DNA of 41,536 bases, from the IMG/VR virus record IMGVR_UViG_3300025738_000008, positions 1 through 41,536 of that record. One strand, 5' to 3'. The notes under the pieces were generated by a model. The model worked only from the letters and a program-made list of their open reading frames with translations, was not told where the DNA came from and did not search any database. Below, in pieces: positions 8,378 to 18,978 of the stretch. The stretch is from a virus (Duplodnaviria > Caudoviricetes). The position numbers were made by a program, and so were the translations under genes. The number at the start of each line of letters is the position of its first letter. Positions within the stretch are counted from its first letter, which is position 1.

Positions 8378-9064
8378 GTGCGATATAACACAGAAGGATT
8401 GCGTGATGAAATTCGAAACGCACTGTTAGTTGTCTCTAGAACGAAGGGCCAGCTTGATGGGTTTGAAGATTGCGGCAGTAGTAATAGTAAGTTTCAAAAA
8501 ACGCGGGCTGGGGCTCAACCAATCCGCACGTTGGCATGTAGAACATTTAAAACATCACCGATGCCATTGCCTCCGCAAGCATTTAAATTTACCAAATTGG
8601 TTCGCGCTGTGAATAACGCACGAAAATGCGTTGCTGACTGGTTGCGCTATTGCTACAGCGATGGTGCGCAGCTGCCTACTAAAGCGGTACTAGTTGAATT
8701 GTTGGCTGAATTCTCAGCACAAGAAGACCGTGTACTGCGTGGTTCATCGGTTGAATTAGTTAAACACTTGGCATTGCTTGCTTGCCAGCAAAAACGCCAT
8801 CAAATAAATATTGGTTCGAACCTGCTCACTCAAGTCAAAATTGCACAGCTTGCGGGTAAAACTGACTCCGCGTGGAATAAACGCTGGTCATGTCGCTGGG
8901 AACGCCTGCTTCGGATCTTAGAAACCTTTGATCAAGAGGGGCTTAACCATGTGTATAAATGCGGACGCGGCCAAAAAACTACCAGAGAACATGGCGACTT
9001 GCTTGTGCAATGTAGCATTCAATCTCGAACCCGAAATGAAATGGCTACCAGTATGGCGCTATAA
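8378..9064 (+). CDS. Q: Late antitermination protein Q
   Basis: RTKGQLDGF and WLRYCY motifs and C-terminal HTH-like region typical of N15-like Q proteins; position in the cro operon. Confidence 0.8.
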   Translation: MRYNTEGLRDEIRNALLVVSRTKGQLDGFEDCGSSNSKFQKTRAGAQPIRTLACRTFKTSPMPLPPQAFKFTKLVRAVNNARKCVADWLRYCYSDGAQLPTKAVLVELLAEFSAQEDRVLRGSSVELVKHLALLACQQKRHQINIGSNLLTQVKIAQLAGKTDSAWNKRWSCRWERLLRILETFDQEGLNHVYKCGRGQKTTREHGDLLVQCSIQSRTRNEMATSMAL

Positions 9065-9267: not shown

Positions 9268-9465
9268 ATGCGAGAACATACGCAATTACCGATACAGAAG
9301 TCTGAACAACCGAATGTGTTCGAATCATTTTTTCACGCTGAAACATTCTTGGAAATAAATGGTTACGAGTGTCATGATGGAGTTTGGTTGAACAATGTTC
9401 TTTTGAATGCGACCGTGGTCGCAAAGCCGAATGGCGTTGAAGTTATTTTTGGAAATATCCATTAA
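9268..9465 (+). CDS. Hypothetical protein
   Basis: GGAG RBS before ATG; contains a parS-like palindrome. Confidence 0.6.
   Translation: MREHTQLPIQKSEQPNVFESFFHAETFLEINGYECHDGVWLNNVLLNATVVAKPNGVEVIFGNIH
9408..9423. promoter_or_regulatory. Putative parS/sopC-like centromere site 2
   Basis: TGCGACCGTGGTCGCA, downstream of Q. Confidence 0.8.
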
Positions 9466-13133: not shown

Positions 13134-13817
13134 ATGAAAATAAATCAGCATACTTCACATCCGTCAGCATTCATTAGTTCGACTTTTGTCGACCTTGAAG
13201 ATGAAAGGGATTGTGTAGCAAAAGGATTACAAGAGTGTGGGCTAATTGTAAATGCCCTAGAAGTAAAGCCTGCTTCAAATGGTACATCTAGATCCGAAAT
13301 ATTGAAAGGTATTAAGGAAAGTGATTTTGTAATATTAATCATTGCTGACAGATTTGGTTCTATTGTGCCCAAGATAACTAATAGTCAATCGTTGAGTGTT
13401 ACTTGGTGGGAATACAAGATGGCCATTACATTTGGAAAACCAGTGATTGCTTTTTTTCAAAAAAGCGATTTTTTCAATACTAATTATCATGATTCTACAT
13501 CAGATGAAAGTTATCCACGAAAGCGTAAATTGTTTGAAAAATTTAAGTCATTGATTACTGTAAGTCATAATCCTGCATATTTTACGGATTCATATGATTT
13601 ATCTGAAAAAGTGAAACGATCTTTAATTTCAACTTACCGTGAAGGTGTTGTAAAACTGGACAGTGACAAATCTTCACTGAATAGAACTATTGCTAATAAA
13701 GAAGCTCTTATTTCCTGTTTAGAAGCTGAGAATAAGGAATTAAAACGTAAGTTGGATAAAACTCAAAACCCTTCAGGTATTGGTATGCTAACTGGCTTTG
13801 GAAGTTTGAGTAAATAA
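13134..13817 (+). CDS. DUF4062 (TIR-clan) domain protein with C-terminal coiled coil
   Basis: FISSTFVDLEDER, SDFVILIIADRFGS, SVTWWEYKMAITFGKPVIAF motifs. Confidence 0.8.
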   Translation: MKINQHTSHPSAFISSTFVDLEDERDCVAKGLQECGLIVNALEVKPASNGTSRSEILKGIKESDFVILIIADRFGSIVPKITNSQSLSVTWWEYKMAITFGKPVIAFFQKSDFFNTNYHDSTSDESYPRKRKLFEKFKSLITVSHNPAYFTDSYDLSEKVKRSLISTYREGVVKLDSDKSSLNRTIANKEALISCLEAENKELKRKLDKTQNPSGIGMLTGFGSLSK

Positions 13818-14265: not shown

Positions 14266-14514
14266 ATGAATAATATTAAACCACGTCAAAATAGTCTTGT
14301 GACCAATATACTTAACAGCACGAATAAACATGCATTAGATGCTAAAAACATTCATCATAAGCTGGGTGAAATTAATAGTTTTTTGCATATTACATTTGTT
14401 ATTGAACAGTTGTACATTGCGGGGTTACTAGATGTTGAAGATGGAAATCGTTATATCACGACAGATGCGGGGAGATTATTTAATTCAGACAAAAACACTA
14501 TATGCTGTGTTTAA
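14266..14514 (+). CDS. Small winged-helix-like protein
   Basis: AGGAG RBS; IEQLYIAGLL...YITTDAGR wHTH signature. Confidence 0.6.
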   Translation: MNNIKPRQNSLVTNILNSTNKHALDAKNIHHKLGEINSFLHITFVIEQLYIAGLLDVEDGNRYITTDAGRLFNSDKNTICCV

Positions 14515-14541
14515 AATAAAAATAAACACAATATGTAGTTG
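14495..14541. promoter_or_regulatory. Tandem NrdR-box-like sites
   Basis: ACACTATATGCTGTGT (14495-14510) and ACACAATATGTAGTTG (14526-14541), 31 bp apart; NrdR consensus acaCwAtATaTwGtgt. Confidence 0.6.
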
Positions 14542-14567
14542 CAAATGTCCTATTGATGCGGTATAAA
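14539..14567 (+). promoter_or_regulatory. Late promoter (pR'-like)
   Basis: TTGCAA -17 bp- TATAAA, followed within ~40 nt by a terminator, upstream of the lysis and virion genes. Confidence 0.65.
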
Positions 14568-14603
14568 TTAGCCATTGTGCGGTTTTTGTAACTCAGCACA
14601 AAT

Positions 14604-14632
14604 AAAAACCTCGCCATTGTGCGGGGTTTTTT
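14604..14632 (+). terminator. tR'-like terminator (Q-antiterminated)
   Basis: AAAAACCTCGC-cattgt-GCGGGGTTTTTT. Confidence 0.85.
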
Positions 14633-14641
14633 CGTTTCTGG

Positions 14642-14830
14642 ACGCGGTTTGAGTACCTGAGACCTGCAGAATAAGCAGAGAGGAGCCGCGTATTTTTTAC
14701 GGCAATGAAATGGGCGACTGTGAAGTGCGATAACACCCCACAGTCAATTGACCTATTACAGAAGTCATAAGCCAACACCAAGGCCCATCCAGCTTTGCAA
14801 AGCGGAATGGAGTCTACAGGAAAGTAGGTC
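14642..14830 (+). ncRNA. Putative structured late-leader RNA
   Basis: Stems 14642-50/14683-91, 14710-15/14783-88, 14716-22/14739-45, 14749-52/14764-67 and GCTTTGCAAAGC. Confidence 0.45.
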
Positions 14831-14833
14831 TGT

Positions 14834-14959
14834 ATGACAGTATTAAGGGTATTACGTTGTCAAAACTGCAACGCTAAGTTATGTGAATTTGATGGTATCG
14901 TCAAAACGAAATGTAAGCGTTGTAAATCATTGGTTGAAGGGAGTACCAAGAGTACCTAA
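14834..14959 (+). CDS. com: Mu Com-like zinc-ribbon translational activator, 41 aa (not in ORF track)
   Basis: MTVLRVLRCQNCNAKLCEFDGIVKTKCKRCKSLVEGSTKST: RCxxC-K-L...KCxRC, directly upstream of a DNA modification gene. Confidence 0.8.
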   Translation: MTVLRVLRCQNCNAKLCEFDGIVKTKCKRCKSLVEGSTKST

Positions 14960-14973
14960 TCTTAGGAACTCTA

Positions 14974-16020
14974 TTGAATCACTCTTTTTTGAACAATCGC
15001 ATTCAGCTAGCGAACGCTGATTGCCTTATCTATTTAAAAACTTTACAAGATAGTAGTGTTGATCTTGTTTTAACCGACCCACCGTATTTTCAAGTGAAAA
15101 AAAACGCTTGGGATAATCAGTGGCCAGATGTTGAAACGTTTTTAGCATGGCTTGATGAAGTGCTACTTGAATTTTGGCGTGTATTAAAGCCATCAGGTTG
15201 TATTTATTTGTTTTGTGGCCACAAGCTTTCAGCTGATACCGAGATGCTTATGCGTCAACGGTTTAACATGTTAAATCACATTACATGGGCAAAACCTAAC
15301 GGTCCTTGGCGACGCATGAGAAAAACGGATCTTCGTTCGTTCTTCCCTGCTACGGAGCGCGTTTTATTTGCTGAACACTATGGTGCAGAAGGACATGCGA
15401 AAGGCGTGTCCAGATATGCAAAGCAGTGTGCAAAATTAAAGAAAGAGGTTTTTAAACCTCTGATTAATTATTTTAAAGATGCCCGGGAACAACTTGGCAT
15501 TTCAGCAAAAGATATAAACAAGGCTACTGACACACAAATGTGTTCGCATTGGTTTAGTGCGAGTCAATGGCAACTTCCAAATCGTGAACAATATGAAAAG
15601 CTGCAGGCGTTGTTTGCTGAACATGCTGGCAAACTCTGTCGTTCTCACGATGAATTAACAAAAGAATACGATGCATTAAATGCTGATTACCAATTTTTAA
15701 CTCGTCAGTATGATGATTTAAAAGCTGAGTATGAGTCGTTGCGTCGTCCATTTAGCGTCACAAGTGACGTGCCTTACACCGACGTTTGGACGTTTGCTCC
15801 TGTCGCGTATTATCCTGGTAAACATCCGTGCGAAAAGCCCGCAGAAATGCTGGAACATATTCTTACTGCTAGCAGTCGAGAAGGTGGTGTCGTGCTTGAT
15901 GCGTTTATGGGTTCTGGTTCAACTGGTAAAGCGTGCGCGAAACTAAACCGCCGTTTTATTGGTATTGAAATGGAGGAGGGCACTTATTTGTCGACTGTCG
16001 AGTCATTCAAAGAATTATAG
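14974..16020 (+). CDS. Site-specific DNA methyltransferase (N6-A/N4-C, beta class) with internal HTH-like insert
   Basis: TDPPY, HPCEKP, VLDAFMGSGSTG; TTG start. Confidence 0.92.
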   Translation: MNHSFLNNRIQLANADCLIYLKTLQDSSVDLVLTDPPYFQVKKNAWDNQWPDVETFLAWLDEVLLEFWRVLKPSGCIYLFCGHKLSADTEMLMRQRFNMLNHITWAKPNGPWRRMRKTDLRSFFPATERVLFAEHYGAEGHAKGVSRYAKQCAKLKKEVFKPLINYFKDAREQLGISAKDINKATDTQMCSHWFSASQWQLPNREQYEKLQALFAEHAGKLCRSHDELTKEYDALNADYQFLTRQYDDLKAEYESLRRPFSVTSDVPYTDVWTFAPVAYYPGKHPCEKPAEMLEHILTASSREGGVVLDAFMGSGSTGKACAKLNRRFIGIEMEEGTYLSTVESFKEL

Positions 16021-16049: not shown

Positions 16050-16328
16050 ATGTTAAAGAACAACAAAAGCTGGCTATCTAAGCTGATGGCATGGTGGCTA
16101 GGCACTAGCTTTTCAGCGAAAGCTGACGAAATATCCACGGGTTCAACCAAATTTTTTGCGGGTTTCGCTACTTTTTTCGGTGCGTTCTCAGTCAATGAAT
16201 GGGGCGTTATCTTCGGTATATTCCTCGGTGTTGCTTCATTTATTTTGTCTTGGTATTTCAAAGTGAAGAATCACGACTTACTTCGATCTCGTATTGAGCA
16301 AGATTTAATGAAGGAACTAAGCCAGTGA
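16050..16328 (+). CDS. Holin (HP1-like)
   Basis: SVNEWGVIFGIFLGVASFILSWYFK transmembrane motif; overlaps endolysin start; true start may be internal. Confidence 0.75.
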   Translation: MLKNNKSWLSKLMAWWLGTSFSAKADEISTGSTKFFAGFATFFGAFSVNEWGVIFGIFLGVASFILSWYFKVKNHDLLRSRIEQDLMKELSQ

Positions 16329-16906
16329 AAAAAAGTAACAAAGCTGTTTGCTCAGTAATAGCCATTATCGGCATTATTACAGGCGGCGCTTATCAGACAG
16401 AAGCCGTTTCCTTCCCGCCTGTCGGAGATGTTGAAATAAATGGATCCACGGTCGCAAAGCTTAAAGTGTCTCAGCGAGCACTAGAAATAATCGGTAATGC
16501 AGAGGGTTGTAGATTAAAACCGTATGCTTGCCCTGCGGGGTTAGCGACGGACGGAATTGGTAATACACATAATGTTACCGGGAAAGTTAAAACAGAAGCC
16601 GAAATTGCAATGGAATGGGTCCGCAATATCAGCTCTGCAGAAACATGTCTCATTACCTCAACGGGTGATGTCTTAATGAGCCAGGGGCAAGTTGACGCCT
16701 TTACGTCATTTATATTCAACACAGGTTGCACGCGATTCAAGAATAATCCGGACGGTAGTGAGACACGTATTTTTAAACATATAAAAGCTGGTAGATATAA
16801 GAACGCTTGTAATGAGTTGCGTTTTTGGGTTTATGGCGCTGGTAAGAAGTTAACTGGCTTGGTCAAACGAAGGAAGGTGGAAACTGATGTTTGCTTTTCT
16901 TCGTAA
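16325..16906 (+). CDS. SAR endolysin, GH24 lysozyme (P1 Lyz-like)
   Basis: N-terminal weak TM with Cys; IGNAEGCRLKPYACPAGLATDGIGNTH catalytic motif. Confidence 0.9.
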   Translation: MKKSNKAVCSVIAIIGIITGGAYQTEAVSFPPVGDVEINGSTVAKLKVSQRALEIIGNAEGCRLKPYACPAGLATDGIGNTHNVTGKVKTEAEIAMEWVRNISSAETCLITSTGDVLMSQGQVDAFTSFIFNTGCTRFKNNPDGSETRIFKHIKAGRYKNACNELRFWVYGAGKKLTGLVKRRKVETDVCFSS

Positions 16907-17318
16907 GATAAATACTACAACCGTTATTGGTTTGCTGTTTATTGCTGGAATTAGTTTTTTATCGTTACGAATTGGATTGTTGCAAAATACAATCAAAAAA
17001 CAATCTCTGCAGTTAGAAATTAAAACAGCAAAACTAGCTACTGCAAAGCAATCGATCGAAACTGTTTCACAGACCAACACTAATTTAAATTCAACGATTG
17101 ACACGCTAACTCAACACTTGAAAGATGAGCGTCGTGCTGTTGAATTCATAAAAAAATACAATGGGGCCGTGGACGCATCGGTCAATAAAGCTGTCGGCAA
17201 ACTAAAAGGACTACTCAAAAATGAAGAAGATGATTGTGGTTCTCGGCCTTTGCCTTCCGGTGTTATTGACAGCATGTGGCAGCACTACGGAGTTGAAGGT
17301 CGTAACCCAAACCCGTGA
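16887..17318 (+). CDS. Inner-membrane spanin (Rz-like)
   Basis: N-terminal TM, coiled coil, C-terminal C...LPSGV. Confidence 0.8.
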   Translation: MFAFLRKINTTTVIGLLFIAGISFLSLRIGLLQNTIKKQSLQLEIKTAKLATAKQSIETVSQTNTNLNSTIDTLTQHLKDERRAVEFIKKYNGAVDASVNKAVGKLKGLLKNEEDDCGSRPLPSGVIDSMWQHYGVEGRNPNP

Positions 17319-17499
17319 TGTGTTTGTGTTACCGCCTGCAGCGTTAATTACGCCGTGTGATATTCCTTTTGATGCTCCGCCCTTAACTCGGGATGAAGCG
17401 GTCGAACGTGATCTTGTTTGGAAGGGTGCGTTAGATAAGTGCGGGAAGAAACCCGATAAGATCAAAGAGTGGTACCGAGGTAAACAGGCTGATAAATAG
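17221..17499 (+). CDS. Outer-membrane spanin lipoprotein (Rz1-like)
   Basis: Lipobox LLTAC, Pro-rich, overlaps Rz in another frame. Confidence 0.82.
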   Translation: MKKMIVVLGLCLPVLLTACGSTTELKVVTQTRDVFVLPPAALITPCDIPFDAPPLTRDEAVERDLVWKGALDKCGKKPDKIKEWYRGKQADK

Positions 17500-17529: not shown

Positions 17530-17595
17530 ATATAAGGCCAGCATATGCTGGCCTTATATATAAGTGGGTTTTGAAAGCCTGCTTATATATAAGGC
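17530..17595. repeat. Perfect 30-bp palindrome overlapping a second inverted repeat
   Basis: ATATAAGGCCAGCAT|ATGCTGGCCTTATAT (17530-17559); GCCTTATATATAAG (17551-64) / CTTATATATAAGGC (17582-95). Confidence 0.9.
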
Positions 17596-18330: not shown

Positions 18331-18396
18331 AATTTTTTATATTATTTTTGACTGGATCCGCTTCCGATTTTTCAATTGTTTTGGGACCTATTATTT

Positions 18397-18978
18397 ATGA
18401 GCACAATAAAAGCGTTAGCAGTTAAATTAGGTGTATCTGACCGTACTATTCGTAACCATCAAAAAGACGGCTACGCTTTGGTGTACTTGGATGATAAGAA
18501 AATTGACATCGATAAATCAGTGCATGTATATGTTAAATATCAATCTGAAAAAATAAGACAAATGAAGGCTCAGAAAGGCCGAGATTCTAGCGGAAACAGC
18601 GGAAGCAGTAATGAGCCTGAAGCGATAACAGATTGGAAAGCGGAAAAAGAAAAACAAGCAGCAATAAAAATCAAATTACAGAATGAGCAAGACTTAGGTG
18701 AGTCAGTTCCGTTGGATGCGATGATGGAGCTTTATAACAAACCTCTTTCGTATATCAAAAATAAGCTAACTGATTTATCTAACCAAATATCAAAACGTTT
18801 CTCTCTTTCTCCAGCCGAAATTAAGTTAGTTGATGATTTAGTTCGTGATGCGCTCGATGAACTGAATGAGAAGGGTATGGATGAATTGCAGTCAATTATC
18901 ACGCCGATTATCGAGCGGTATTCTAAATACTATCGTTCCGCCGAAGAAGATGGCGATTATTCCCTGGACGAGGATTAA
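18397..18978 (+). CDS. Terminase small subunit (Nu1-like)
   Basis: N-terminal wHTH (LAVKLGVSDRTIRN), coiled coil, overlaps terL. Confidence 0.8.
   Translation: MSTIKALAVKLGVSDRTIRNHQKDGYALVYLDDKKIDIDKSVHVYVKYQSEKIRQMKAQKGRDSSGNSGSSNEPEAITDWKAEKEKQAAIKIKLQNEQDLGESVPLDAMMELYNKPLSYIKNKLTDLSNQISKRFSLSPAEIKLVDDLVRDALDELNEKGMDELQSIITPIIERYSKYYRSAEEDGDYSLDED

Follow-up and report, generated by a model that had tools for sequence, protein, structure and literature searches.

Introduction

In lambdoid phages, the coupling of late expression to replication is usually explained by the slow accumulation of Q alone. The Q cassette of the Q82 family associates a PF06323 Q protein, a promoter, a short transcript, a terminator and the late genes. 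Q lets the polymerase pass the terminator after PR'. In the accessible text of PMC9388147, control by Q is described at pausing and termination only, and no host metabolite-sensing repressor of initiation is described. Host repressors wired into phage control are known from the LexA sites of phage promoters (N15 antirepressor, GIL01), where induction is gated by LexA in response to DNA damage (PMC11652158, accessible part).

Bacterial NrdR operators (nrdAB, nrdHIEF and nrdDG of E. coli, nrdAB and nrdRJ of S. coelicolor) share two 16-bp boxes with six conserved positions, a linker of 15–16 bp of free sequence and an overlap with the RNA polymerase site, as described in the accessible sections of PMC13584703, PMC12051234 and PMC9110341. 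NrdR binds the two boxes as a dATP/ATP-loaded tetramer and leaves DNA when loaded with ATP only (PMC9110341, PMC13584703), so that a slowing of DNA synthesis, with its rise in dATP, brings about repression (PMC9110341); each box is kinked by about 90 degrees (PMC12051234).

An orthologous described locus is the late promoter region of N15, phiKO2 and PY54, which consists of a gp51-like ORF, a protein-binding site, a promoter, a terminator, a methylase gene and lysis genes. In N15 and phiKO2, the -35, the -10 and the terminator are annotated between gp51 and the methylase gene, and a binding site (parS) of the phage ParB lies about 20 bp 5' of the -35. The parS at the N15 late promoter is IR3, and Ravin is said to have reported in 2008 that Sop facilitates N15 late expression. 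Here we describe an orthologous late promoter at which the ParB site is replaced by a candidate host-repressor pair overlapping the -35.

A probable Q-dependent late cassette in an N15-like phage-plasmid

The window, i.e. the whole stretch of 41,536 nucleotides analysed, is a single 41.5-kb contig of an N15-like (telN) linear phage-plasmid. Its genes follow the order protelomerase, repA, cI/cro, Q82-family antiterminator, accessory genes, methyltransferase (MTase), holin, endolysin, spanins, terminase and virion genes, parA/parB (Table 1). The closest named relatives are the Vibrio phages yong3, Valp1, ST2-1pr, K242 and HY01, together with Vibrio plasmid records. The initial annotation had stated that the phage carries no nrd genes, and none was detected: a tblastn search with five host NrdA/NrdD proteins as queries gave no match in the window. 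The AT-rich accessory stretch 5' of the late promoter also encodes a DUF4062 protein (13134–13817), possibly a defence-type moron.

The simultaneous presence of a Q gene, a promoter, a terminator and lysis genes is that of a Q-dependent late cassette. The late promoter was inferred by orthology with N15 and phiKO2 and not from a consensus match; a simple consensus promoter scan did not list it because its -10 lacks the final T. It is followed by a hairpin of 11 base pairs and a run of T (14604–14631), then by com, MTase, holin, endolysin, spanin and terminase genes in the order initially proposed. No LexA box was found near the late promoter, and no sigma-dependent pause element was identified at it. 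The ORF whose final codons overlap box 1 had been labelled a winged-helix protein. Pfam did not confirm this label, and neither Pfam nor PDB sequence searches gave a confident family; we assign it to the N15 gp51-like proteins, an assignment which leans on synteny since the homology is weak (15.1 and 10.4 bits, in a comparison against four sequences).

Table 1. Features of the window at and around the late promoter.
Feature	Position	Strand	Remarks
Q antiterminator, Q82 family	8378..9064	+	PF06323; 5.4 kb 5' of the late promoter
parS-type palindrome TGCGACCNNGGTCGCA	9408..9423 (also 5728, 18234)		same motif as phiKO2/N15 sites; 9408 copy lies 3' of Q; the late promoter has no copy
gp51-like ORF, 82 aa	14266..14514	+	weak homology and synteny with N15/phiKO2 gp51
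NrdR-type box 1, ACACTATATGCTGTGT	14495..14510		one deviation, T11C; 16.5 bits with the host strong-site matrix; overlaps the final codons of the gp51-like ORF
Linker, 15 bp, AT-rich	14511..14525		sequence not conserved
NrdR-type box 2, ACACAATATGTAGTTG	14526..14541		all six NrdR-conserved bases; 17.5 bits; positions 14-16 supply the -35 TTG
-35 TTGCAA of the inferred late promoter	14539..14544	+	position orthologous to the annotated -35 of the N15 and phiKO2 late promoters
-35/-10 spacer, 17 bp	14545..14561	+	type tracks the Q clade; candidate Q-binding element, inferred
-10 TATAAA	14562..14567	+	TATAGT/TATCGT in relatives
Short initially transcribed region with conserved GCGGTTTTT	14568..14640	+	ends in the intrinsic terminator, stem 14604-14631
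Com-like zinc-ribbon ORF, first ORF past the terminator	14834..14959	+	PF10122, E 0.039, below cut-off; kept in relatives
DNA adenine methyltransferase	14974..16020	+	
Holin, endolysin, two spanin subunits	16050..17499	+	
Terminase small subunit	18376..18978	+	first of the packaging/virion genes, same strand

Two NrdR-type boxes overlap the inferred late promoter

The pair of 16-mers which had been noticed in front of the late genes, with starts 31 bp apart, was found again, each box occurring once in the window. C4 and G13 are present in both boxes, 8 bp apart. A6, A8, T9 and T11 are all present in box 2, while box 1 deviates at T11C only, so that the full match of box 2, the single mismatch of box 1 and the overlap of box 2 with the -35 could all be reproduced. 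The AT content between C4 and G13 (0.75 and 0.875) is above the at least 63% of the rule. One deviation, as in box 1, is also seen in most host nrd pairs. T11C equals A6G on the opposite strand; A6G in both boxes cut the binding of E. coli NrdR tenfold, and a single box alone was not bound (PMC13584703, accessible text).

To score the boxes against the genome background, matrices were built from 59 Vibrio nrdA/nrdD promoters and no phage sequence. Of 60 regions upstream of host nrd genes, the strict published regular expression recovered pairs in only 6, mis-called start codons being part of the reason, and host sites were re-picked by position; one promoter (L137) was left out as a non-orthologous nrdA copy. 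Since the partner boxes of the hosts lie across the -10 in an uncertain register, a matrix restricted to the strong sites was used besides the full one. With both matrices, the two boxes were ranks 1 and 2 among the 41,521 16-mers of the window. The strong-site matrix gave 8.3 bits for the next-best window position and 9.7–23.1 bits for the host strong sites themselves (leave-one-out), which puts the phage boxes at the level of real nrd operators. The pair score of 34.0 bits was reached by none of 500 whole-window dinucleotide shuffles (maximum 24.2) and none of 5000 local shuffles (maximum 14.3), and no other pair exists in the window. Javan prophages of Streptococcus suis and an Acinetobacter plasmid also gave BLAST matches to the box region (14500–14539), and these are probably further NrdR-type pairs.

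Conservation of the pair among related late promoters

An anchor search yielded 25 distinct homologous promoters, that of the window among them; the full pair is present in 20 of these, box 2 alone in 2 and neither box in 3. Addition of L108/109, L119 and L120 (both boxes) and L027 (none) gave 29 distinct promoters: 23 with both boxes, 2 with one and 4 with none. Q-bearing loci without a promoter anchor (L105, L111/L128, L112, L122, L123, L127) were left out of these counts. The expected conservation in telN relatives thus held for both boxes and their spacing in 23 of 29 promoters, the full pair being missing in the other 6. In the 23 pairs, which were chosen by score and include near-identical groups that are not all independent, 269 of 276 bases at the critical positions 4, 6, 8, 9, 11 and 13 are kept. 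C4, A8, T9 and G13 never vary (C4 and G13 in 46/46 boxes), and positions 5, 7, 10 and 12 vary largely as in host NrdR sites. Spacing is 31–32 bp from start to start, with a linker of 15–16 bp, in 23/23, the linker itself drifting (mean pairwise identity 0.45). The end of box 2 lies on the TTG of the -35 in 20/23 and one base earlier in 3/23. Pairs occur on both main branches of the Q tree and on the long branch of L130. Taken together, these results confirm that the box pair is a real, conserved feature which is not due to chance.

Promoters lacking a full pair are of several kinds. The HY01 type has box 2 and a box 1 whose C and G are only 7 bp apart, a distance which abolished NrdR binding (PMC13584703, accessible text). 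No boxes were seen in L020 and L027. In L024/025/087, which count as one promoter, a truncated upstream gene runs into the -35, by deletion or misassembly; the Q of L087 is identical to that of the boxed L001. As such promoters exist, a NrdR layer would not be essential, and with 6 of 29 promoters devoid of the full pair it is probably dispensable or tunable. No pair was found in the late regions examined of N15, phiKO2, PY54, VP882, MAR and VP58.5, nor at the MTase loci of other phage groups (L021–L023, L028, L031–L084). In a 99%-complete relative (L026:3490–3545), both boxes look decayed by several point changes, with C4, A6 and G13 kept and the centres lost, which makes it a candidate for a natural NrdR-independent variant.

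Host NrdR and host nrd operators

NrdR is encoded by all five Vibrio hosts of the relatives, in each case with D15 and R17, the base-reading residues of the protein (PMC13584703, accessible text). Exact consensus pairs number 6 in the 23.4 Mb of these five genomes, every one of them at the late promoter of the phage-plasmid, and a reversed-pattern control gave 0. In the Vibrio nrdA/nrdD promoters (L138–L196), a consensus box is paired with a deviant one, mostly A6C, which apparently overlaps the -10, and the phage pair is closer to the consensus than the hosts' own because of this deviation. During lytic infection of S. pneumoniae by a temperate pneumococcal phage, the NrdR regulon was by far the top upregulated host response at 50–90 min (PMC6755750, accessible part). 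Release of NrdR during lytic growth thus does occur in another system, which by analogy is consistent with the mechanism proposed below.

NrdR-type pairs in other phages

The tandem pattern at 31–32 bp is present in about 960 IMG/VR stretches, as estimated from 8/64 parts, versus 12 at the off-phase distance of 36–37 bp; 119 of the 121 pairs fetched are intergenic. From 80 flanked pair loci, 69 were annotated with PHROGs, near-duplicates, one clade member and two loci without ORFs being left out. Nineteen of the 69 face terminase, portal, scaffold, head protease, tail or endolysin genes, and the remainder are directed towards genes for replication, integration or regulation, or towards unknowns. 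In a strong-promoter baseline, late genes were faced by 8/77 loci under a strict definition (p 0.010) and 12/77 under a liberal one (p 0.10), the loci not being independent. For terminase/portal genes, the figures were 14/69 for pair loci and 3/77 for the baseline (p 0.003, a test inflated by related loci). The enrichment of pairs at late genes across phages is suggestive. A NrdD match was found near the pair in 1 of 80 loci, class II and Ib reductases being probed only indirectly. Among these loci (L199–L319), pairs were seen in many unrelated phages 5' of terminase, portal or lysis genes and also of replication initiators, integrases and an antirepressor. Recurring small genes also follow such pairs, phrog_3773 with phrog_2273, phrog_3866 or phrog_1733.

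A proposed host-sensor gate on late transcription

The initial annotation had placed the host dNTP sensor over the late promoter, a reading which is supported by the scores with host-derived matrices, the conservation of the pair and its independence of the adjacent ORF and of Q type. The window pair passes the sequence tests of a NrdR operator and would be a variant of the known operator in a new setting: unlike the bacterial examples, it is known here from sequence, belongs to a phage without nrd genes and fronts com, methylase, lysis and virion genes instead of an RNR operon. We consider it probable that host NrdR, loaded with dATP/ATP, blocks Q-dependent late initiation until replication lowers dATP or outnumbers the repressor. 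NrdR bound to 14495–14541 would occlude the -35. After induction, Q would build up while phage replication lowered dATP and multiplied the operators, freeing the promoter. The late genes would then depend on an AND gate, in which Q allows terminator read-through and NrdR release allows full initiation. Lysis and packaging genes would wait for genome amplification, leak in the plasmid state would be reduced and, as a side effect, titration of NrdR would derepress host nrd genes. Gating by nucleotide status, as first suggested, is retained in this form and not as a release at plentiful nucleotides; because NrdR represses at high dATP, the published mechanism implies that release would follow dATP drain or titration of NrdR by copy number. 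Whereas LexA gates induction, NrdR, which senses dATP/ATP, would gate the late stage.

Could the boxes be bound by a phage protein, their likeness to NrdR sites being incidental? Q, the gp51-like ORF product, CI/Cro and ParB are conceivable binders, as the boxes adjoin the gp51-like ORF in most relatives and sit at the target promoter of Q. The gp51-like protein was rejected because its ORF is absent from the whole genomes of K242 and HY01, although K242 has both boxes; conversely, the ORF is present in L020 and L026, where the boxes are missing. Q was rejected as well: the -35/-10 spacer exists in two types which follow the Q tree (a 16-row branch with support 96/95), while the boxes span both types, and L087 points the same way. 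A check which had been called for thus shows the boxes to be independent of Q type and of the ORF next to them. The boxes are not parS sites since the palindrome TGCGACCNNGGTCGCA is a different motif, no second copy of a box lies near cI/cro, and the degeneracy of the boxes mirrors that of host NrdR sites. We regard binding by a phage protein as very unlikely. That chance or protein-coding constraint produced the pair is hardly credible: the region is AT-rich and the end of an ORF overlaps box 1, but the local shuffles never reached the pair score and, across relatives, the upstream ORF ends before, within or past the boxes, or is another gene.

Other explanations keep NrdR as the binder, and they are not mutually exclusive. 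Amplified phage DNA might titrate NrdR off host nrdAB/nrdDG and so increase the supply of dNTPs, while late transcription would hardly be affected. The lack of nrd genes in the phage, a pair nearer to the consensus than the host pairs and the rise of the NrdR regulon in lytic infection (PMC6755750, accessible part) would all fit. A decoy could sit anywhere, however, whereas in 23/23 promoters box 2 adjoins or overlaps the -35 to within one base, and the window has only one pair; we hold this explanation to be unlikely. NrdR may also act architecturally or positively, bending DNA or helping Q to load, like the parS/SopB site in the same slot of N15. Kinking of the boxes by NrdR (PMC12051234, accessible part) would favour it. 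So would the position of parS just 5' of the late -35 in N15, phiKO2 and PY54, and the window's retention of parS 3' of Q with none at the late promoter. The aid reportedly given by Sop to N15 late expression points the same way. Overlap with the -35 is, on the other hand, a geometry of repression, the N15 parS lies about 20 bp farther upstream and the cited papers describe NrdR as a repressor only, so that such a role appears improbable. We give equally little credit to the view that NrdR has no part in lytic timing and merely curbs the leak of late transcripts in the lysogen. It is favoured by the loss of the boxes in several lineages and by the location, on a plasmid prophage, of holin and endolysin genes close after a single terminator; a nucleotide-sensitive repressor freed during DNA synthesis would be an odd constant clamp, and the pairs 5' of terminase/portal genes in other phages also argue against it.

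The preferred reading, NrdR as a dATP-responsive gate on late initiation, may extend further. Phages of many hosts may repeatedly have set up a replication checkpoint by placing NrdR operators at their late promoters, the Vibrio N15-like clade using the slot of N15's partition site; we see the case for this broader view as evenly balanced. If the gate is real, replication would be read out directly through metabolism, by a nucleotide-sensing host protein that represses the late promoter, and drugs or stresses shifting dATP would alter lysis timing. The NrdR regulon would then extend beyond ribonucleotide reductase; the original NrdR prediction of 2005 reportedly already had boxes before a few non-nrd, replication-related genes. 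Cultured phages offer a clean comparison set, with both boxes (Valp1, yong3, K242, ST2-1pr), one box (HY01) or parS instead (N15/PY54/phiKO2).

The initial annotation knew of no such control characterised for a phage late promoter, and our search of the openly accessible literature likewise brought up no paper that places NrdR at a late promoter of a phage. The accessible texts of PMC12051234, PMC4009431, PMC12176259 and PMC11652158 do not describe it, and those of PMC9110341, PMC12176259 and PMC4009431 do not mention the word 'phage'.

Other elements of the late region

The segment 14562–14630 scored 34.4 bits (E 1e-4) against Rfam isrJ (RF01393), under the gathering threshold of 37, at which no Rfam match was obtained in the window. 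IsrJ is a short terminated RNA 3' of a Q-like gene in Gifsy-1 (PMC4825925, accessible part), and the sub-threshold match suggests that IsrJ-like RNAs may be short late-promoter transcripts. Between the terminator and com/MTase, the leader 14702–14825 can form a long-range TGGGC/GCCCA stem, invariant in 13/13 sequences including MAR, PY54 and phiKO2. Its inner hairpins show some two-sided changes, and it has no Rfam match at gathering; it is possibly a translational control element of the methylase. Finally, a perfect 30-bp palindrome (17530–17559) lies between the spanin genes and the terminase and is followed by repeated CTTATATATAAG.
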